Positions 3,583 to 50,124 of a DNA stretch of 64,000 nt are shown in pieces (position 1 is the stretch's first letter; each line of letters opens with the position of its first letter). This DNA is from Bacteroidales bacterium. GTDB lineage: Bacteria > Bacteroidota > Bacteroidia > Bacteroidales > WCHB1-69. The notes beneath the pieces were generated by a model that did no database searches, was not told the DNA's origin, and saw nothing but the letters and a program-made list of their open reading frames with translations. A program made the position numbers and the translations under genes. Location of the stretch: NCBI GenBank assembly GCA_017994425.1, contig JAGOKS010000001.1, forward strand, positions 1,294 through 65,293. Reading direction: 5' to 3'.

Positions 3583-6306
3583 TTATTTAGCGTTTTTAAT
3601 AGCTGCTTGGGCGGCAGCCAAACGAGCTACCGGCACGCGGAAAGGAGAGCAGGAAACATAGTTAAATCCTGTGTTGAAGAAGAATTCAACTGAAACCGGA
3701 TCTCCACCATGTTCGCCACATACACCTACTTTTAATTTGGCTTTGGTAGCACGGCCGCGTTGGGTGCCTAATTGTACCAATTGTCCTACGCCTTCTTGAT
3801 CCAAAGTATTAAACGGGTCAGCCGGAATAATTTTATGGTCAATGTAAGCGTTTACAATGGCATTTACATCATCGCGTGAAAATCCGAGTGTCATTTGTGT
3901 TAAGTCGTTGGTACCAAAAGAGAAGAAATCAGCTACTTTCGCAATTTCATCCGCAACTAAGGTGGCGCGCGGTATTTCTATCATCGTACCGTATAAATAC
4001 TTAATTTTCACTCCGAATTTCGTTTCAATATCAGCAAGTACTTTATCAGCAATTACTTTTTGATGTTTTAATTCGCTTACCGAAATGGTAAGTGGAACCA
4101 TTATTTCCAGTTGAGGGTCAAAACCTTCTTTCATTAATTCAGCCGTAGCCTGAAACAAAGCGCGGAATTGCGTTTCTGTGATTTCGGGATAAACAATACC
4201 GAGACGTACGCCGCGTAATCCCATCATTGGGTTTACTTCATGTAATGCATCAATGCGACTTTTAATATCTTCAAATGCCATTCCTTTTTCTTTGGCTAAT
4301 TCCCGTTGTTTGTCTTCAGTTTGAGGCACAAACTCATGCAAAGGGGGATCCATTAAGCGGAAAGTAAGAGGTTTCCCATTCATTACTTTTAAAGTTCCTT
4401 TGGCAGCTTTGCGGATATAAGGTTCTAATTCATCTAAAGCAGCAATACGTTCCTGCGTATTGTTAGCCAAAATCATATTTCGTAATTTAGCCAAAGGTGC
4501 TTCGCTATTTTTTCCATAGAACATGTGTTCGATGCGGAATAAGCCTATACCTTCGGCACCGAAATTAATTGCATTTTGAGCATCTTCGGGAGTATCAGCA
4601 TTGGTACGAACACCCATGGTACGGTGAGCATCCACTATTTTCATAAATTCTTGAAATCTTGGATTTTCAGTAGCATCTATCATTTTCACGGGAACATCAT
4701 AAACCCAACCTTTAGAGCCGTTTAAGCTTATGACATCGCCTTCTTTATAGGTTTTACCATTGATAGTAATCTGGTTTTTTGAAAGGTCAATTTTGATAAC
4801 ATCGCAACCTACGATACAGCATTTACCCCATCCACGAGCTACTAAAGCCGCATGGGATGTCATACCTCCGCGGGCTGTTAAGATACCATCGGCAGCACGC
4901 ATGCCTTCCACATCTTCAGGATTGGTTTCTTCACGAACTAAAATATTTTTGATATGGAGTTTATTGTATTCCATTGCTTTTTCGCTTGTCAAGGCGATAG
5001 CACCTACTGCTCCTCCCGGACCGGCCGGAAGCCCTTTAGCGATTACTTTTTGTTTGGCTTCATCTTGGGCATCCAAAATAGGGTGAAGTAATTCATCTAA
5101 TTGAGCAGGAGTGAGTCGCATAACAACATCTTTTCCGCTTATTAAATTTTCATGCAACATATCCAAAGCCATATTCAAGGCAGCTACTCCGGTACGTTTT
5201 CCTACGCGGCATTGCAACATAAATAATTTACCTTCTTGAATGGTAAACTCAATGTCGAGCATATCTTTAAAATTGTTTTCTAAGATAGTCCGAATTTCAC
5301 ACAATTCTTTATAGGTTCCGGGCATGGATTCCTGCATGGAATGTAAATGTTTGTTTTGTTCGTTTTTAGTATCATCATTCAACGGGTTAGGTGTACGGAT
5401 ACCTGCAACAACGTCTTCGCCTTGAGCATTGATTAGCCATTCTCCGTAGAACTGGTTTTCACCGGTAGCAGGATTACGAGTAAAAGCAACGCCGGTAGCC
5501 GAATTATTTCCCATGTTTCCAAACACCATAGCTTGTACGTTTACAGCTGTTCCCCATTCATCGGGAATGCCTTCAATGCGACGGTATGAAATGGCTTTTT
5601 TGCCGTTCCAACTTTTGAAAACAGCTTTAATGCCGCCTTCTAATTGTGCTTTGGCATTGTCGGGAAATTCCGTTCCCAACACTTCTTTTATTTTTTTCTT
5701 AAAAGCATTGGACAATTCCAATAATTCATCTGCACTGATATCGGTATCTGATTTATAACCTTTGGCGTGTTTAAATTCATCAAGCATGTCATCCAATACT
5801 TTACGAATTCCTTTCCCATCTTTAGGGTCAATACCTTCTGATTTTTCCATCACCACATCCGCATACATCATGATTAAGCGACGATAGGAGTCGTATACAA
5901 AACGCGGGTTATTGGTTTTCTTAATTAAGCCGGGAATTGTTTTAGAACTTAATCCAATATTTAAAACTGTATCCATCATACCGGGCATGGAACTTCTTGC
6001 TCCTGAACGGCAAGAAATCAGTAAAGGATTATCGGCATCATCGTATTTCAAACCCATGATATTTTCTACATTCTTCATGGCTTCCCATACATCCTCCATT
6101 AAGTATTCCGGAAGTTGGCAATCGTTGGCATAATAAGCGGTACAACATTCTGTTGTAATTGTTAATCCTGCCGGAACAGGCAAGCCTAAATGACACATTT
6201 CAGCCAAATTTGCTCCTTTACCACCTAATAGGTTTTTCATGTCTGCTTTGCCTTCGGCAGATTTTCCTCCAAAAGTATAAACATATTTTATTTTACTCAT
6301 TTTCAA
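3583..6306 (-). CDS. ppdK: Pyruvate, phosphate dikinase
   Basis: 907 aa. N-terminal YVYTFGG..GGKGANLAEM, phospho-His swivel motif GGMTSHAALVARG, and a C-terminal PEP-utilising domain (GVCGEHGGDP). Confidence 0.95.
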   Translation of the reverse strand: MKMSKIKYVYTFGGKSAEGKADMKNLLGGKGANLAEMCHLGLPVPAGLTITTECCTAYYANDCQLPEYLMEDVWEAMKNVENIMGLKYDDADNPLLISCRSGARSSMPGMMDTVLNIGLSSKTIPGLIKKTNNPRFVYDSYRRLIMMYADVVMEKSEGIDPKDGKGIRKVLDDMLDEFKHAKGYKSDTDISADELLELSNAFKKKIKEVLGTEFPDNAKAQLEGGIKAVFKSWNGKKAISYRRIEGIPDEWGTAVNVQAMVFGNMGNNSATGVAFTRNPATGENQFYGEWLINAQGEDVVAGIRTPNPLNDDTKNEQNKHLHSMQESMPGTYKELCEIRTILENNFKDMLDIEFTIQEGKLFMLQCRVGKRTGVAALNMALDMLHENLISGKDVVMRLTPAQLDELLHPILDAQDEAKQKVIAKGLPAGPGGAVGAIALTSEKAMEYNKLHIKNILVREETNPEDVEGMRAADGILTARGGMTSHAALVARGWGKCCIVGCDVIKIDLSKNQITINGKTYKEGDVISLNGSKGWVYDVPVKMIDATENPRFQEFMKIVDAHRTMGVRTNADTPEDAQNAINFGAEGIGLFRIEHMFYGKNSEAPLAKLRNMILANNTQERIAALDELEPYIRKAAKGTLKVMNGKPLTFRLMDPPLHEFVPQTEDKQRELAKEKGMAFEDIKSRIDALHEVNPMMGLRGVRLGIVYPEITETQFRALFQATAELMKEGFDPQLEIMVPLTISVSELKHQKVIADKVLADIETKFGVKIKYLYGTMIEIPRATLVADEIAKVADFFSFGTNDLTQMTLGFSRDDVNAIVNAYIDHKIIPADPFNTLDQEGVGQLVQLGTQRGRATKAKLKVGVCGEHGGDPVSVEFFFNTGFNYVSCSPFRVPVARLAAAQAAIKNAK

Positions 6307-39591: not shown

Positions 39592-39723
39592 CAGAAGAAA
39601 AAAGTGGATAGATTTGATTTGATTGCAACCACTCAAAAATGCTAAAACAACGACATTTTCCATCAATCATTAGAATCCATTCCTTTTAAAAATTAGTTAT
39701 TTAACAATTAAAATTTTTAAAAT

Positions 39724-41061
39724 ATGGCTTATTTATTTACATCCGAATCGGTTTCGGAAGGACATCCCGACAAAGTATCAGACCAAATATCAGACGCATT
39801 GTTAGACGAGTTTTTACGTCATGACCCACATTCAAAAGTAGCTTGTGAAACACTTGTTACCACCGGATTGGTAGTCTGTGCCGGCGAAGTAAAAACAAAA
39901 GGATATGTTGACATTCAAACTATTGCTCGTAAAGTAATCCAAGAAATCGGATATACAAAAGGCGAATACATGTTCGAAAGTAACTCTTGTGGCATTGTAT
40001 CGGCAATACACGAGCAATCGCCTGATATCAATCAAGGTGTTGAGAGATCGAAAATTGAGAATCAAGGTGCCGGCGACCAAGGCATGATGTTCGGCTATGC
40101 GGTGAAAGAAATGGATAACTTGATGCCTGTTCCCATCGAATTGGCACATATCTTTATGCAAGAATTGGCTGCCATTCGTAAAGAAGGGAAAAAGATGAAA
40201 TATTTACGTCCTGATTCCAAATCACAGGTAACAGTAGCTTACAACGAAAAAGGAGTGCCGGTAAACATCAATACCATCGTAATATCCACACAGCACGATG
40301 ATTTTGTAAAGCCGAAAGAAAGCGGGAAAAAAGCACAAGAAAAAGCAGACAATGAAATGCTTTCCATCATTAAAAACGATGTTGAAAAAATACTGATTCC
40401 ACGGGTAAAAAAAGCATGTCCCGAACATATTCGCAAGCTTTTCAAAGGCGATTATCAATTATATGTAAATCCTACGGGTAAATTTGTAATCGGTGGACCT
40501 CACGGTGACACCGGTTTGACGGGAAGAAAAATCATTGTCGACACCTACGGAGGCAAAGGTGCCCATGGCGGTGGTGCTTTTTCAGGCAAAGACTCCTCGA
40601 AAGTAGATCGTTCGGCGGCTTATGCAGCACGACATATTGCTAAAAACTTAGTGGCAGCAGGCGTTGCCAAAGAAGTATTGGTACAAGTTGCCTACGCTAT
40701 CGGCATTGCCAAACCGGTAGGCTTATTTATTAATACCTTTAATTCCTGCTTGCTGAAAGACAAAAACGGAAAGAAAATCACCGATGCTGATATAGCTGAT
40801 AAAGTTAATGCCGTTTTTGATTTACGCCCTTATGCCATCATCCAACGTTTTGGATTACAAAATCCTATTTTTCAATTAACTGCTTCTTACGGACATTTTG
40901 GAAGAGACCCTTTTACCAAAGAAATTGAAGTCTATTATACTGATGAGAATGTCAAAGCAAAGAAAGTTAATGGGGAAACAAAATATTTTAAAGAAGTAGA
41001 ATTTTTTGCTTGGGAAAAACTGGATTATGTACACAAGATTCAAAAGGCATTTGATTTATAA
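39724..41061 (+). CDS. metK: S-adenosylmethionine synthetase
   Basis: 445 aa. [30 protein letters not shown] and GGGAFSGKD motifs. Confidence 0.95.
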
Positions 41062-44856: not shown

Positions 44857-44889
44857 TACAGAAACTGATTTCGTGCCGAAAAAAGAATT

Positions 44890-44917
44890 GTAGAGACATA
44901 GAATGCTATGTCTCTAC
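44890..44917 (+). terminator. Perfect 12-bp hairpin after the second ligase gene (weak T-tract)
   Basis: gtagagacatag-aatg-ctatgtctctac. Confidence 0.4.
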
Positions 44918-44929
44918 GTTATTCCAATA

Positions 44930-45577
44930 ATTACTGTTTTGAAAGCAACAAAAAATATTAATAAAAGGATGTTTTTTGTTATCGTACGTTGTAAAAAGAA
45001 TAATACATAGTTATGCTCCAGTGATTAGATGCTTATCTGTTATTGTTAGGGTGCCCACCTTAGTCCGATTTGCCAGCTATGTAATGCTTCTTGGAAAGCC
45101 ATCAAATGAACCTAAGGAGCGCTCCCTAACACCGAAGGATGCTTATCAAATGATTGGACGATGCCTTTGCGTTTATCGTTTACTAACTGTGTAAATCAAA
45201 TTTCACGGCTTTACGCTCAGAAACTACTGAATTTAGTTGAACTATAATGATTCATGATTCATAATTTCTCTCGTGATTTACTTTTTACTTTTACCTTGTC
45301 CCTTTCCCCTTGGTTAGCGAGTTTGTTGCAAGTATTTCCCACCTTCATTAAAACGCCGTGCCTGTCTTTTTCATAGGAGATTGGGGAGTAGTTGCAAGGA
45401 GCTCCCATGCTCGTTGAAACGAGATTGCAATCTCATTTGAAAGAGTAAGGCAGGCCGTTTTAACGGACTTGGGACGTCCGGCGTACGACCTTGGGAACTC
45501 ATAAATGAGGCTATTACTATTGTTATCATTTATGTTTTTTTTTCAATGAAACAAATAAAAGTATATTTTTGCAAAAA
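44930..45577. other. ORF-poor, GC-richer, hairpin-dense spacer of unknown nature (candidate structured RNA and/or decayed recombination modules)
   Basis: Only one ORF of at least 60 aa, with non-protein-like composition. Nested stems 45045-45051/45124-45130 and 45058-45063/45112-45117, and local hairpins at 45410-45423, 45421-45434 and 45455-45466. Degenerate copies of the tggggag..ttgcaag module occur at 45382-45398 and near 45326. Confidence 0.35.
45564..45571 (+). promoter_or_regulatory. -7 box TAnnTTTG (tatttttg), copy 0 of the repeated promoter module
   Basis: gtatatttttgcaaaaacc resembles the two downstream promoter modules. It abuts the first 34-bp element. Confidence 0.4.
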
Positions 45578-45611
45578 CCACCCCTCTAAATCTCCCCAAG
45601 TGGGGAGACTT
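45578..45611 (-). repeat. 34-bp element, copy 1 (ccacccctctaaatctccccaagtggggagactt), inverted relative to the cassette copy
   Basis: 33/34 identical to the reverse complement of 49791-49824. It contains the palindrome tctcccca-ag-tggggaga. Confidence 0.85.
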
Positions 45612-45671
45612 GCAAGTGCAAGAGAGTTACAACAAACATTCATTTTTTTGTAAACCGATATAATTTATTTG

Positions 45672-45679
45672 TATTTTTG
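45672..45679 (+). promoter_or_regulatory. -7 box TAnnTTTG (tatttttg) driving the truncated stub ORF
   Basis: 22 nt upstream of the ATG at 45701. Confidence 0.5.
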
Positions 45680-45700
45680 CAAAACCAAATCATATAAAAA

Positions 45701-45820
45701 ATGAACCAAAGCTACAAGGCAATAAACTATCAATACGCTGTGGGGCAAAGTCTCCCCATTACCCACCCCTCTAAATCTCCCCAAATGGGGAGACTTGCGA
45801 AGGCGAGAGGGTTACATTAA
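45701..45820 (+). pseudogene. Truncated Rhs-tip cassette head (39 codons)
   Basis: MNQSYKAINYQYAVGQSLPI matches the cassette heads up to the left palindrome arm. It then reads through the inverted 34-bp element to a stop. Confidence 0.55.
45763..45796 (-). repeat. 34-bp element, copy 2 (ccacccctctaaatctccccaaatggggagactt)
   Basis: 34/34 identical to the reverse complement of 49791-49824. Confidence 0.9.
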
Positions 45821-45856
45821 ACAAGCATTTTTTCGTAAACCGATATAATTAATTTG

Positions 45857-45864
45857 TACCTTTG
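45857..45864 (+). promoter_or_regulatory. -7 box TAnnTTTG (tacctttg) for the first full toxin cassette
   Basis: 22 nt upstream of the ATG at 45886. Confidence 0.55.
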
Positions 45865-45885
45865 CATATCGAAATCATATAAAAA

Positions 45886-46719
45886 ATGAACCAAACCTAC
45901 AAGGCAACACTCTCACAACACGCACTACCGCAGTTCCTCCCCATTTATTCGTGGGGCTGTTTGAATTTTACATTAAGGTACTCATGCTTTCCGCTTCGCT
46001 CCAAGTGGGGAGGGAAGGGAGGGGTGATTTGGGGAGATTTAGAGGAGTGGAGCCTTAAAACTATGATGTTTGAGAAATATCCTTCCATTTCACCGTATAC
46101 CTATTGTGCAAATAATCCGATTCTTTTAGTAGATGATGATGGTCAAGAAATAAGAATTTATTATAAAGAAAAAACAGGTATTGCAAGGTTGTTTGAAAAG
46201 CCAAAATCAATAGTTTATACACCTGGAATGGTATATAGTGGAGGAAATAATTTTGTGAATAATGCCGTAAAAGCATTAAATTATGTAAAACAAGGGGATC
46301 AATTAGGGATTATAGAAAAAATTGCAAAAAATAATAAATTAATAAAAATAAAAGAAACTAAAGGTAATACTTTATATAATCCTTTTTCAAATACGGTAAG
46401 ATTTAATACAAAATTAGGACTGGCTTGTGTTGATGAAAATTTAGATGAAACAGGTGGAAAACAATCACCTGCGTTAGGTTTATTACATGAACTTGGTCAT
46501 GGATTTGTTGATATTTTTAAATCAATGAGTGAGAAATTATTTTTGTTAGGAACAGATGACCAATATGATAATAAAGAAGACGAATTTGTAATAACTCAAA
46601 TTGAAACACCAGCAGCAAAGATATTGGGGGAAGGAATAAGAGAAAATCATGATGGGAATGATTTTATAGCTAAAGATGTTAATTCAAAAGAAGAAATAAA
46701 TTCAAAAGAAAAGGAATAA
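45886..46719 (+). CDS. Rhs-tip polymorphic toxin cassette B: HExxH zincin-like metallopeptidase toxin domain
   Basis: The head ends in FEKYPSISPYTYCANNPILLVDDDGQE, the Bacteroidota Rhs core terminus pattern. The variable C-terminal part contains LLHELGHGF. The head carries a 28-aa insertion relative to cassette E. Confidence 0.75.
   Translation: MNQTYKATLSQHALPQFLPIYSWGCLNFTLRYSCFPLRSKWGGKGGVIWGDLEEWSLKTMMFEKYPSISPYTYCANNPILLVDDDGQEIRIYYKEKTGIARLFEKPKSIVYTPGMVYSGGNNFVNNAVKALNYVKQGDQLGIIEKIAKNNKLIKIKETKGNTLYNPFSNTVRFNTKLGLACVDENLDETGGKQSPALGLLHELGHGFVDIFKSMSEKLFLLGTDDQYDNKEDEFVITQIETPAAKILGEGIRENHDGNDFIAKDVNSKEEINSKEKE
46030..46119 (+). repeat. Conserved cassette-head homology block (partial) in cassette B
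   Basis: tggggagatttagaggagtgg...atgatgtttgagaaatatccttccatttcaccgtatacctattgtgcaaataatccg is shared with C, D and E. Confidence 0.8.
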
Positions 46720-46724
46720 TAAAG

Positions 46725-47213
46725 ATGAAAATTTTATTTTTAATTTTATATATGATGATTTCTTATTTGTCATTTTCACAATCAGATACTATAAATAATT
46801 TAATTAATAAGGTTTTATTTGATGAAAATGTCAAAATAAAAATAACATACAAAAAAACAACAATACCAAATTCAATAAAAAAAGAATTAAAAAATAAATA
46901 TGGCGTTTTTAGAATTGCAAATCCAAATATAAAGTATCAGCAAAACGATGTTATTAGATTTCCATGGCAATTACCAGATAATCAAATGTTATTTCTTATT
47001 AATAAAGGAAATTATTATGCTTTTATTTTTATTCATGGAGGTAGAGGAAAATCAATAAATTTTATTTTTTGTGAATTAGATAGAAACAAAAAAATTAGAA
47101 ATATTGATTATTTCTATATGCTATATAAAGTAAAAAGCATAGATGATTTTTTTTATGCAATAAAAAATGAAAAATATAAAAAAAATAAAATGATGTATGG
47201 TAACATAGAATAG
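46725..47213 (+). CDS. Putative immunity protein for cassette B (exported)
   Basis: 162 aa. It starts 5 nt after the toxin stop and has a signal peptide (MKILFLILYMMISYLSFSQS). Confidence 0.6.
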   Translation: MKILFLILYMMISYLSFSQSDTINNLINKVLFDENVKIKITYKKTTIPNSIKKELKNKYGVFRIANPNIKYQQNDVIRFPWQLPDNQMLFLINKGNYYAFIFIHGGRGKSINFIFCELDRNKKIRNIDYFYMLYKVKSIDDFFYAIKNEKYKKNKMMYGNIE

Positions 47214-47320
47214 TGGAAAATGTACCATCGGGTCCTTTATGTGGTAGTGTGCCATTTTAGGTATTTTCAAAAAATGAAAAATATAGTACAGAAATTCAAA
47301 GAGATAAGAAAAAGTAGAGA

Positions 47321-47527
47321 GAAAAACAAGGCTAAAGCAAAGCGATGAAGGATTATGTAGTTAATAATTTCAAGGCAATAAACTATCAATACGCTGTGGG
47401 GCAACTCTCCACTTACATTGATTTAGAGGGGTGTAGCCTTGAAACTATGATGTTTGAGAAATATCCTTCCATTTCACCCTATACCTATTGTGCTAATAAT
47501 CCGATGAAGTATGTAGACCCGACGGGG
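47321..47527 (+). repeat. Conserved cassette-head homology block, cassette C
   Basis: It runs from gaaaaacaaggctaaagcaaagcgATG through ..gtagacccgacgggg and includes ~24 nt of non-coding leader. Confidence 0.8.
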
Positions 47528-48139
47528 GAGGAAGGAGAAGATAGTGAATCATGGATTAAACGTAAGGATGGAACTTATGTTTTTGACAGTAGAGTGATAA
47601 CTCAAAAAGATGCAGAAAAATATTATGGAAAAGATGCTGAAGCAATTGCAGACGGGTACTATATTCAAACAACAAAGGGAGAGGTAATATTCTTAGACAA
47701 TGGGGTATACATGTTAAATGATAAAAAATATCAAGTAAAGGATCAAGCAAAAGGAATAGCTAAAGTAGTGGCTGAAATCAGAAATTTTGATGCTTCATTA
47801 GAAGGGCATAATGATGGTGATAATAGCGGCGACCCTTGGTTACAAAAAAATGTGGCTCCGGTATTAGAAGGATTGGCATTATTAAATCCACTTATTGGTA
47901 TTGCCAATGGCGTATATACAGCCGCTGCAGGTGAAGATATTTATGGAAATGAAGCCAGCACTGCAAATAGGATAATTTCAGGAGTGGGTGTGATTGCAGG
48001 AGGAGTGAGTAATGTTGCCAAAGGAACGGTGTCTACAGTTTCAAAAGGAATTGACAAAGCTATTGATGCTTGGACAGTGTATCAAACAATAAAAGCAGGG
48101 TATAAAAAACAAAATAATAATGAAAACAAGAAAAAATAA
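47345..48139 (+). CDS. Rhs-tip polymorphic toxin cassette C: Gly/Ala-rich C-terminal module (pre-toxin-TG-like or membrane-active)
   Basis: Head MKDYVVNNFKAINYQYAVGQ...FEKYPSISPYTYCANNPMKYVDPTGE. The tail reads LLNPLIGIANGVYTAAAGEDIYGNEASTANRIISGVGVIAGGVS. Confidence 0.7.
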   Translation: MKDYVVNNFKAINYQYAVGQLSTYIDLEGCSLETMMFEKYPSISPYTYCANNPMKYVDPTGEEGEDSESWIKRKDGTYVFDSRVITQKDAEKYYGKDAEAIADGYYIQTTKGEVIFLDNGVYMLNDKKYQVKDQAKGIAKVVAEIRNFDASLEGHNDGDNSGDPWLQKNVAPVLEGLALLNPLIGIANGVYTAAAGEDIYGNEASTANRIISGVGVIAGGVSNVAKGTVSTVSKGIDKAIDAWTVYQTIKAGYKKQNNNENKKK

Positions 48140-48383
48140 AGCCATTCTTTTCTCTTGTGGTTTTTTTGGCATTCTGGGATTTATTACTCTTTCGTCAAAG
48201 TTTCTTAATATTTTTAAAATGGGACCTTCCAGTTGGGAAGAAATAGGTCAATATTTACCTTTATCAATTATTTGTTCTTTGGTATTTGCAGCATGGGTAA
48301 CATGGGGTGGAGTTGGCGATAGTTTAATAAAGTTCTTTGCAAATCGCCGTAAAAATAAAAAAAAGGATAATAATGGGAAGTGA
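48120..48383 (+). CDS. Putative membrane immunity protein for cassette C
   Basis: 87 aa. It overlaps the toxin 3' end by 20 nt and has two hydrophobic segments (AILFSCGFFGILGFITL; LPLSIICSLVFAAWVTWGGV). Confidence 0.55.
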   Translation: MKTRKNKAILFSCGFFGILGFITLSSKFLNIFKMGPSSWEEIGQYLPLSIICSLVFAAWVTWGGVGDSLIKFFANRRKNKKKDNNGK

Positions 48384-48400
48384 TAAATTCTATGGATAAA

Positions 48401-48610
48401 AGAAAAAAACAAGACTAAACCAAAGCGATGAAAAATTATATAGTCAATAATTTCAAGGCAATAAACTCGCAATACACTGTGGGGCAACTCTCTATTGGTA
48501 TTGATTTAGAGGGGTGCAGCCTTAAAGCTATGATGTTTGAGAAATATCCTTCCATTTCACCGTATACCTATTGTGCGAATAATCCGGTAATGTTTGTTGA
48601 CCCGACGGGG
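48401..48610 (+). repeat. Conserved cassette-head homology block, cassette D
   Basis: Same block as in C and E, with scattered substitutions. Confidence 0.8.
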
Positions 48611-49207
48611 AAAGAGTGGGATTTAAGTGGTTTGACCGAATCTCAAAAGAAAACATGGGAATCAACAATGGCGTTTGCCTGTAAGTATAGTAAGTCATTC
48701 AATAAGATGTATAATCAATTGAACAAGTCTTCAACAGTCTATAAAGTAGCTGTTGATACAAAAATAAATACCAAAGGGGAATTTAATGCTAAGAATAACA
48801 CAGTTGCATTTAATTCTGAAGAATCAATAAAACAAGGAGACGTATATATTGAAGAATTATTTCATGCTTATCAAAAGGATAATGCTGATTTATATGAAAG
48901 TGGCAAAAGTTTTAATAAAGAATTTGAGGCAAAAGTTGCAAAACTTATTATAAAGAGTGAAATGGGTTCACCAATTATGAATTTTAAAAATACTAATATG
49001 GAAGGAATGGCTAATTATTTATTTGATAACGAAACGTATAAATTTTGTTTTCCGGATGAATTAGAAAGTAAAGAATTTAATGATAAATATATGAAAGAGG
49101 CAGAAAATTTTAAAAAATGGAATATTGAAAATAATTATGGAGATTCTCATTACAGAACTTTAACAAATCAATCGCCGAAATCATTATTAAAATTATTTGG
49201 AAAATGA
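48428..49207 (+). CDS. Rhs-tip polymorphic toxin cassette D: paralog of the cassette B toxin fold with EELFH in place of HELGH
   Basis: Head ..FEKYPSISPYTYCANNPVMFVDPTGKE. The body shares TKG..(Y/F)N...NTVxFN with cassette B, then reads YIEELFHAYQ. Confidence 0.7.
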   Translation: MKNYIVNNFKAINSQYTVGQLSIGIDLEGCSLKAMMFEKYPSISPYTYCANNPVMFVDPTGKEWDLSGLTESQKKTWESTMAFACKYSKSFNKMYNQLNKSSTVYKVAVDTKINTKGEFNAKNNTVAFNSEESIKQGDVYIEELFHAYQKDNADLYESGKSFNKEFEAKVAKLIIKSEMGSPIMNFKNTNMEGMANYLFDNETYKFCFPDELESKEFNDKYMKEAENFKKWNIENNYGDSHYRTLTNQSPKSLLKLFGK

Positions 49208-49650
49208 AAAAAACAGTAATTATAATAGGACTTACAATCTGTGTATTTTATAGTAATCATGTGTCAACTCAAAACGACATTGGTTATAAATTAGGTTGTT
49301 TAAATTATTATACAAATAATGTTTTTGAGAAATTATTATCTATTATAGACACAACTACAAGAAAAAATTTAATTGAGAAAAGGGATTGTCCTTTTAATAT
49401 TCATATAATGTTGGATACTGTAACAGGGTATCCTATTGAAATTAATATTAAAGATAATTGCAGTATTTTGTCAGAAAAACAAAAGGAGAAGTTTAAAGAA
49501 ATTTTATTTAAAACCCAATTTGATTTTTGTCATGAAGAGCATGATGTTCCTGATAAGCTTGCCAAAAGTCTTTCTCCAGGTTCATTTGGTTTTTTAACAG
49601 GGAGTTTTAGTACTTGGTGGAATATAAAAGTATTATATGAAGAGAAATAG
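49204..49650 (+). CDS. Putative immunity protein for cassette D (exported)
   Basis: 148 aa. Its ATG overlaps the toxin stop (ATGA), and it has a signal peptide (MKKTVIIIGLTICVFYSNHVSTQ). Confidence 0.6.
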   Translation: MKKTVIIIGLTICVFYSNHVSTQNDIGYKLGCLNYYTNNVFEKLLSIIDTTTRKNLIEKRDCPFNIHIMLDTVTGYPIEINIKDNCSILSEKQKEKFKEILFKTQFDFCHEEHDVPDKLAKSLSPGSFGFLTGSFSTWWNIKVLYEEK

Positions 49651-49705
49651 GTAGTGTATCAAGTTAGGGCATAGAAAAATAAAGAATTAAAAGACAAAAG
49701 AATAA

Positions 49706-49914
49706 GAAAAAAACAAGGCTAAAGCAAAGCGATGAAGGATTATGTAGCTAATAATTTCAAGGCAACATACTCGCAATATGCTATGGAGCAAAGTCTCCCC
49801 ATTTGGGGAGATTTAGAGGGGTGGAGCAGAGAAACGATGTTTGAAAAATATCCTTCCATTTCACCGTATACTTATTGTGCGAATAATCCGATGAAGTTTG
49901 TAGACCCAACGGGG
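49706..49914 (+). repeat. Conserved cassette-head homology block, cassette E
   Basis: Same block; it contains the intact palindrome. Confidence 0.8.
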
Positions 49915-50124
49915 GAAGATTGGTATGAAGCCGAAGATGGAAAGGTTACATGGACAGATTGTACAAACAAAAAAGATTTTACAGCATCTGGTATAAAAGG
50001 AACATATTTAGGAAAAACACATAAAGCAGATGGAAAATATTACAGTCTGTTTGGGCAAACAATGAATGCCAATTCAAAACAACTCAAAATCAAAAAAAAA
50101 TTGATGTATTGGAGTATGAAATAA
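49732..50124 (+). CDS. Rhs-tip cassette E: short (130 aa) variable tail, no cognate immunity ORF
   Basis: Head MKDYVANNFKATYSQYAMEQSLPIWGDLEGWS..FEKYPSISPYTYCANNPMKFVDPTGE, with only ~65 aa of variable tail. The next gene is convergent rlmN. Confidence 0.6.
   Translation: MKDYVANNFKATYSQYAMEQSLPIWGDLEGWSRETMFEKYPSISPYTYCANNPMKFVDPTGEDWYEAEDGKVTWTDCTNKKDFTASGIKGTYLGKTHKADGKYYSLFGQTMNANSKQLKIKKKLMYWSMK
49791..49824 (+). repeat. 34-bp element in coding orientation (aagtctccccatttggggagatttagaggggtgg)
   Basis: It encodes SLPIWGDLEGW and contains the palindrome tctcccca-tt-tggggaga. Confidence 0.9.

Follow-up and report, generated by a model that had tools for sequence, protein, structure and literature searches.

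A generic hairpin-plus-mirror-arm repeat as the probable joint and breakpoint of an orphan Rhs-tip toxin/immunity array in a Bacteroidales genome

In a stretch of 64,000 nt from a Bacteroidales bacterium (GenBank assembly GCA_017994425.1, contig JAGOKS010000001.1; hereafter, the window), an array of orphan Rhs-tip toxin and immunity genes carries copies of a 34-bp palindromic element in opposite orientations at its two ends, which raises the question of whether the element serves as a crossover site or has another origin. A sequence-only reading of the locus had proposed hix/gix-like sites of a serine invertase bracketing an invertible array of about 4 kb. Neither the invertible array nor a dedicated invertase site was supported by our analysis, since the element is a generic repeat, no recombinase was found in the window or beside related arrays, the cassettes are co-oriented, and the predicted junction is absent from metagenome contigs. 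The element is a generic hairpin-plus-mirror-arm repeat built into the orphan Rhs-tip unit, where it probably acts as a structure-prone joint and breakpoint and as a 3'-end hairpin, not as an invertase site.

The plus-strand copy AAGTCTCCCCATTTGGGGAGATTTAGAGGGGTGG at 49791-49824 lies within the open reading frame (ORF) 49732-50124 and is translated in frame as SLPIWGDLEGW. Its exact reverse complement (34/34) is found at 45763-45796, and the inverted copy at 45578-45611 matches at 33 of 34 positions, with the sole mismatch inside the 2-nt centre; coordinates and identities were thus right in the earlier reading. The 8+8 palindrome with a 2-nt centre described there (TCTCCCCANNTGGGGAGA) was also borne out, occurring three times in the window versus none in 100 shuffles. 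Both upstream copies form the 5' ends of a tandem direct repeat of 185 bp (45578-45760 and 45763-45945, 82% identical), each 5' of a TAnnTTTG module as previously noted, to which we add a further box at 45564-45571, 6 nt before copy 1. The stub junction at 45748-45762 likewise stood. Cassettes C and D, reported as lacking the site, bear degenerate versions of the element at 47405-47433 and 48488-48516. One statement had to be amended. The head of cassette B is split by an insertion after a left arm ending at 45943, as claimed, but the insertion in the loop comprises 60 nt (45946-46005) and not 84 bp, because the left arm, judged by homologous heads, in truth pairs with TGGGGAGG at 46006-46013; the other 24 nt belong to the B head type as a normal extra half-motif.

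Read on its G-rich strand, the element has the order TCTCCCC-loop-GGGGAGA-TTT(A)-AGAGGGG-TG(G), that is, a hairpin with a mirror-symmetric third arm, and the supposed spacer is the hairpin loop, which varies from 3 to 8 nt across the family. All three window copies show the arm order of a triplex motif (TCTCCCC-ATTT-GGGGAGA-TTT-AGAGGGG). On the C-rich strand, CCCCTCT-AAA-TCTCCCC forms a perfect homopyrimidine mirror repeat, followed by the complement GGGGAGA. A scan of 767 kb of fetched genome loci with the generic pattern Y7-loop-R7-N2-5-mirror(R7) yielded 237 three-arm motifs among the loci listed versus none in five dinucleotide shuffles, and about 10 other arm sequences hold all three arms in register. 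An array-specific variant, CCTCCCC/GGGGAGG/GGAGGGG, is likewise three-armed. Judged by this arm order, the element is a Bacteroidota representative of hairpin-plus-mirror-arm repeats with the potential to form intrastrand triplexes, triplex formation itself being a prediction. Searches against Rfam gave no relevant match (whole window at the gathering threshold, 44.8-50.3 kb at E values up to 5, and 18 element loci), the sole match near the element being whalefall-1 at a chance-level E value of 4.9, and our literature search found no account of the element sequence itself.

Among the findings that would speak against a switch, the earlier reading had named a ubiquitous, genome-wide REP-like repeat (repetitive extragenic palindrome) unrelated to rhs loci. 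A search with the 19-mer core CACCCCTCTAAATCTCCCC in a one-genome-per-species collection returned at least 113 stretches, and among the matches listed, to which the following counts refer, were Balneolaceae/Rhodohalobacter (several copies per genome), Flavobacteriales, Chitinophagaceae, Sphingobacteriales, Marinifilum and Paludibacter, and outside the Bacteroidota a few metagenome-assembled genomes (MAGs) of Binatia and Chloroflexota. The core was followed by a 3-8-nt loop and GGGGAGA in 93 of 111 non-array copies, 75 of these 93 continuing with CTT; the query contained neither the right arm nor CTT. Of the 111 copies, 92 are intergenic by a simple ORF criterion, with neighbouring genes convergent in 23 cases, in tandem in 36 and divergent in only three, a distribution usual for REP-like repeats. 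Within the 8 nt following the element, at least four T were counted in 64 and at least five in 30 of 93 copies. The element is thus generic, found singly at more than 100 unrelated, mostly 3'-intergenic sites, and is not specific to arrays. In Balneolaceae/Rhodohalobacter (L009-L120, e.g., L021, L039, L053 and L081), we also observed the element at the centre of a longer multi-copy repeat, ...GGGGGATGTT(C/T)ATCAG...CCGATGAA, element, ...ATTAATCGAACTCAGGTT, with an opposite-sense G-run/mirror motif upstream.

We reached related arrays, in further Bacteroidales MAGs and in metagenomes, by way of cassette-head homologues. These orphan arrays lie in varied housekeeping contexts (fadD/rlmN, mutY/Zip, M13 peptidase, MeaB; window, L003, L005, L007 and L076) at a great distance from full-length Rhs genes. 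A separate ATG and a conserved leader of about 20 residues are present in each cassette, of whose Rhs core only the last 20-60 or so residues are kept; in the window toxin ORFs, only the last 20-25 or so residues of the RHS-associated core are left (TIGR03696 positions 52/56-76). Two head types could be distinguished. While the MKDY head (window C, D and E) starts at ...gcaaagcgATGAAGGAT, the MNQ head (window stub and B) equals an MKDY head with an insertion of about 125 nt directly after ATGAAGGAT (alignments A1 and A2). This insertion, which interrupts the leader of some cassettes, starts exactly at CCACCCC. Besides the element, another small hairpin, a T-run and a TAnnTTTG box lie within it, and it creates a new ATG. 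Since it begins with the element, the latter stands at a fixed distance of 116-123 nt 5' of the MNQ ATG in the window, L005 (twice) and L007. In one Bacteroidales lineage, the element thus belongs to the array unit with two fixed places, in G-strand sense in the cassette head, where a short leader ORF meets variously truncated Rhs-core ends, and in C-strand sense as the first 34 nt of the insertion, and the opposed copies at the ends of the window array follow from this unit design, because two tandem module units come first and E, the only module-less window cassette with an undecayed head hairpin, comes last. The junction of a putative promoter and then the element at the array start is common to the window, L076, L146, L135, L007, L124 and L137. 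One immunity gene with an identical flank precedes the module in L005, whereas in L149 and L150 the MKDY head that comes after it is uninterrupted. In L121, L134 and L136, a DUF559 gene (PF04480, E 9e-35; 129 aa) lies between the opposed copies in the place of the promoter module, and remnants of such genes were seen in L127, L128, L139 and L140. A general link between DUF559 and the element was considered and rejected, as jackhmmer over all ORFs of 109 loci placed such a gene near the element in L057 alone, with another in L048 at a distance of 1.3 kb.

Evidence for the element as a joint comes from the variety of sequences that meet there. Among forty-odd distinct heads, four types of leader, several of hairpin and several of downstream continuation are met in many combinations, and in L134 and L007 a CCTCCCC left arm is paired with a GGGGAGA right arm in hybrid hairpins. 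Fusion of the tail GGTGG to the RHS-core profile falls at position 18 in L003, at positions 52-56 in the window and, by sequence reading, at about position 30 in L140; these varied fusion depths are nested truncations of the Rhs core anchored on the element. Breakpoints also fall into the loop. The window stub is interrupted there (AAGTCTCCCCATTAC|CCACCCC), with an identical junction in L134 and L136, and the 60-nt insertion of cassette B, which leaves the ORF open, recurs in L005 (gene 4154-5032), L134, L139 and protein P0009. Thus, the fallback of the earlier reading, a cruciform or template-switch hotspot, came close to the account favoured here, in which the hairpin is head joint, breakpoint of the deletion stub and site of loop insertion. 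Structure-prone DNA, be it a hairpin, cruciform or triplex, would act as preferred breakpoint and joint, so that leaders, promoter modules and toxin bodies could be recombined, deleted and duplicated at the element, and the upstream copy may serve as a 3'-end or insulating hairpin before the cassette promoter.

Several observations weigh against this account. Arms are about 99% identical compared to 66-70% for the flanks, even within ORFs, and since arm changes are compensatory and not synonymous, the constraint acts on nucleotides and not on the peptide SLPxWGDLEGW. Though retrieval of many loci with exact patterns inflates the figure for the arms, the invariance holds for protein-retrieved loci too, and it implies that the nucleotides are under active constraint or repeatedly converted, which a passive hotspot leaves unexplained. 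Furthermore, the hairpin is intact in about 20 of 21 module-preceded heads and lost in eight of ten module-less heads; therefore, the pairing of two copies may matter. Within the 64-kb window, the element is confined to the array. A simple terminator scan made no call on the window copies, the nearest T-run being 30 nt away. Finally, the promoter/leader segment between the copies is inverted in L131.

The last point bears on a small inverton, in which the upstream and head copies flank a segment of about 130-190 bp with the TAnnTTTG promoter and ATG leader that is flipped by an unlinked recombinase, toggling the downstream toxin cassette. Promoter inversion by recombinases encoded at a distance is common among Bacteroidales. 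In L129, the copies are 33/33 inverted repeats, 129 nt apart, around a TAnnTTTG promoter, and module-associated heads retain intact hairpins. L131 (1.3 kb, c. 3x coverage) reads upstream cassette, ATGAAGGATAC, element, reversed MNQ leader and reversed promoter, which is exactly the junction expected from a flipped promoter segment of about 150 bp, and its upstream cassette is followed in L148 by an uninterrupted head without insert. However, L131 is short and ends 92 nt after the element, and its arrangement could stem from chimeric assembly at the 33-nt repeat or from inter-array recombination; the reciprocal junction was not found in metagenome contigs. The ON arrangement was seen in about 20 of 21 readable units, and a search for opposite orientations of one unit with the upstream immunity proteins of L131 and L005 gave only contigs with uninterrupted heads. 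Centres agree between paired copies in five of 13 units, about the rate expected by chance given two common loops, arms differ (TCTCCCC versus CCTCCCC) in many, and the window units have no intact partner, one being cut to 11 nt and the other split by 60 nt. The element is also a generic repeat elsewhere, and we regard such an inverton as unlikely. Somewhat harder still to credit is that in each unit the opposed copies serve as inverted repeats bounding a small invertible cassette with either promoter and start codon or the DUF559 nuclease gene, acted on by an unlinked enzyme, with L131 as the flipped state; if this were true, silent Rhs toxin tips far from Rhs genes would be switched on and off in a phase-variable manner, and a real small promoter flip would be a new mode of regulation for silent toxin cassettes.

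A role at the RNA level appears distinctly improbable. Here, transcripts from upstream would be ended or insulated by the upstream copy in concert with the second hairpin and T-run, and pairing of the 34 nt of that copy in read-through RNA with the head copy would mask the start region, so that only transcripts from the internal promoter are translated. The promoter modules are predicted to fold into a three-way structure of -21.7 and -23.5 kcal/mol (z -3.4 and -2.9), whose outer stem CCCUCU/AGAGGG encloses both hairpins; 14 nt of the head copy are kept even in decayed heads, with GATTTAGAGGGGTG in all heads; the wider family sits at gene 3' ends, often followed by the T-rich stretch counted above; and a TAnnTTTG box directly precedes copy 1. 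On the other hand, the window copies have no U-run and fail the simple terminator rule, no Rfam family matches, and the mirror third arm would be without a role.

Another view, which seems very improbable to us, takes the element for the end or target of a mobile element (promoter module or DUF559 gene) or for an attC-like capture site of Rhs tips on which an unlinked enzyme acts. In its favour, a sharp, invariant CCACC end adjoins at least four different left neighbours, one identical flank occurs both with and without the module, the DUF559 gene (PD-(D/E)XK-type) lies between opposed copies in three loci, and the arrays occupy differing housekeeping contexts. Yet the 125-nt module shows no target-site duplication or second terminal repeat, DUF559 is near the element in only one or two of 109 other loci, no integrase or transposase was found in the window or beside L003, L005 and L007, and cassettes C and D are normal without the site.

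Inversion of the whole array of about 4 kb by a serine invertase between hix/gix-type sites at 45763-45796 (or 45578-45611) and 49791-49824 is hardly credible: though the 34/34 inverted repeat, the 8+8 palindrome with its 2-nt centre and the matching centres of the pair (AA versus TT, consistent with inverted sites) speak for it, the perfect match arises because about 30 positions are invariant throughout the family and the loops coincide; no recombinase or transposase domain was detected in any window ORF of at least 100 aa, as the earlier reading had stated, nor beside the element-bearing arrays L003, L005 and L007; in every related array, cassettes and modules all share one orientation; the stub-plus-reversed-leader junction of a 4-kb flip was seen in none of 26 metagenome contigs, and the junction predicted for a flip between module copy and head copy (second hairpin reversed, element, head body) had no match in metagenome contigs; and inversion between 45763-45796 and 49791-49824 creates no ORF, again as stated earlier. 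A literature search found no inversion switch for Rhs arrays.

Among known systems, the BoxC/PIT/TMECO repeats (Hoyne et al. 2000; Holder et al. 2015) resemble the element most in layout, with a pyrimidine arm, a 3-6-nt loop, a purine arm, a 3-nt second loop and a mirror purine arm; their consensus is CCCTCNCCC-N3-6-GGGNGAGGG-N3-GGGNGAGGG, with TTA as the second loop of type A (PMC4666352). TMECO repeats are reported to combine conserved stems with variable loops and to sit in unusually variable regions of the E. coli genome (Holder et al. 2015, PMC4666352), and the element shares conserved stems, variable loops, numerous and mostly intergenic copies, and a tie to locally variable or rearranged DNA. 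It differs in arms of 7-8 instead of 9 nt, in sequence, in its hosts (Bacteroidota/Balneolaceae versus Proteobacteria/cyanobacteria), and in lying in frame in ORF heads and bounding a promoter insertion. With REP sequences and bacterial interspersed mosaic elements (BIMEs), which are mobilised by REP-associated tyrosine transposases (RAYTs), it has in common short palindromes at gene 3' ends in both orientations, often as opposed pairs and shunning divergent promoter regions, but it is flanked by (A/C)CACCCC and CTT without a GTAG/CGTC tag, its mirror third arm is not a REP feature, and no RAYT-like ORF was seen in the window. The hix/gix/cix sites of serine DNA invertases likewise consist of two inverted half-sites around a 2-bp centre and occur as inverted copies; in comparison, the element has no sequence similarity to them, no invertase gene in the window and a centre varying in sequence and length, is mostly solitary elsewhere, and its inverted array state was not found in contigs. 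Some units resemble Bacteroidales invertons in their perfect 33-bp inverted repeats around a TAnnTTTG segment of about 130 bp, with one flipped contig, but the repeats are generic hairpins and often differ from each other in a unit, ON is the state of about 20 of 21 units, and no recombinase was identified. Finally, orphan Rhs/CdiA C-terminal toxin-immunity arrays (Zhang et al. 2012, PMC3482391) also consist of tandem toxin tips with immunity genes sharing a short end of the Rhs core (PxxYxYxxNNP...DPxG); here, by contrast, the neighbourhood lacks a full-length Rhs gene, every cassette starts with an ATG leader of its own, some cassettes also with a promoter, and what is left of the core homology, about 20 residues, is joined to a hairpin repeat.

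Thus, the claim of an invertase switch that flips a whole Rhs-tip array loses ground. Perfect inverted repeats at such arrays can come from a generic hairpin repeat and would be flagged by inverton finders that rely on inverted repeats, which calls for caution. BoxC-type repeats are extended to the Bacteroidota by a near-invariant sequence of about 30 nt common to several orders, and the repeat is tied to a probable genomic role as a joint for recombining leaders, promoter modules and toxin bodies of orphan cassettes. The features on which this analysis is based are compiled in Table 1.

Table 1. Element copies, promoter modules, cassette heads and cassettes of the window, and DUF559 genes of related loci.
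Feature	Position	Strand	Remarks
Element copy 1	45578..45611	-	C-rich strand on +: CCACCCCTCTAAA-TCTCCCC-AAGT-GGGGAGA-CTT; opens tandem unit 1 (first 34 nt)
Element copy 2	45763..45796	-	Loop AAAT; opens tandem unit 2 (first 34 nt); reverse complement of E copy
Element copy 3	49791..49824	+	G-rich strand on +; in frame, head of cassette E
TAnnTTTG box TATTTTTG	45564..45571	+	6 nt upstream of copy 1; putative promoter, sequence reading
Promoter module 1, remainder	45609..45700	+	Hairpin CTTGC-AAGT-GCAAG 45609-45622; T-run 45643-45649; TATTTTTG box 45672-45679
Stub	45701..45762	+	ATG and leader MNQSYKAINYQYAVGQ; left arm AAGTCTCCCCA alone (45748-45758), TTAC; abuts copy 2
Promoter module 2, remainder	45794..45885	+	Hairpin CTTGC-GAAG-GCGAG 45794-45807; T-run 45828-45833; TACCTTTG box 45857-45864
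Cassette B head, composite	45936..46050	+	Left arm CCTCCCCA 45936-45943; 60-nt loop insertion 45946-46005; right arm TGGGGAGG 46006-46013
Cassette B head, 3' part	46014..46050	+	Mirror arm GAAGGGAGGGGTG 46014-46026; half-element TGGGGAGATTTAGAGGAGTGG 46030-46050
Cassette C head, decayed element	47405..47433	+	Palindrome lost, tail GATTTAGAGGGGTG retained
Cassette D head, decayed element	48488..48516	+	
Orphan toxin/immunity array	45886..50124	+	Cassettes B, C, D, E
Cassette B	45886-46719 with 46725-47213	+	
Cassette C	47345-48139 with 48120-48383	+	
Cassette D	48428-49207 with 49204-49650	+	
Cassette E	49732-50124	+	
DUF559 endonuclease-fold gene	L121 1445-1831; L134 4889-5275; L136 992-1378	- of each locus	

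In the window, the array is flanked by two acyl-CoA ligase-type genes and rlmN. The window otherwise consists of housekeeping DNA of a Bacteroidota organism, including type IX secretion genes, with no full-length Rhs gene in its 64 kb, and six-frame translation of 44860-45580 revealed no hidden gene. Searches for the exact proteins of window genes yielded nothing but short fragments of this locus, all from one sample (JGI 3300010353). One of its contigs, L001 (4245 nt; cf. window c. 41.0-45.3 kb), bears both acyl-CoA ligase genes and stops about 430 nt past the second, just short of a conserved block and the repeat units; assemblies thus appear to break at the array repeats.

This conserved non-coding block of about 170 nt lies directly 5' of the array start (window 45335-45500, L076 4380-4560, L020 3575-3770 on the minus strand, and L007 9480-9720), in four loci with differing gene neighbourhoods. 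It contains the palindrome GAGATTGCAATCTC once in the window and in L076, twice in L020 and three times in L007. Its consensus fold reached -37.9 kcal/mol with no Rfam match, the sequences being too few for covariation. A further palindrome with a 12-bp stem (GTAGAGACATAG...CTATGTCTCTAC), conserved in L076 and resembling a terminator when read on the minus strand, was found at 44890-44917, just 3' of the second acyl-CoA ligase gene. Finally, a SAM-II riboswitch was detected at 39598-39655 (61 bits; gathering threshold 44), 5' of the S-adenosylmethionine synthetase gene at 39724-41061.

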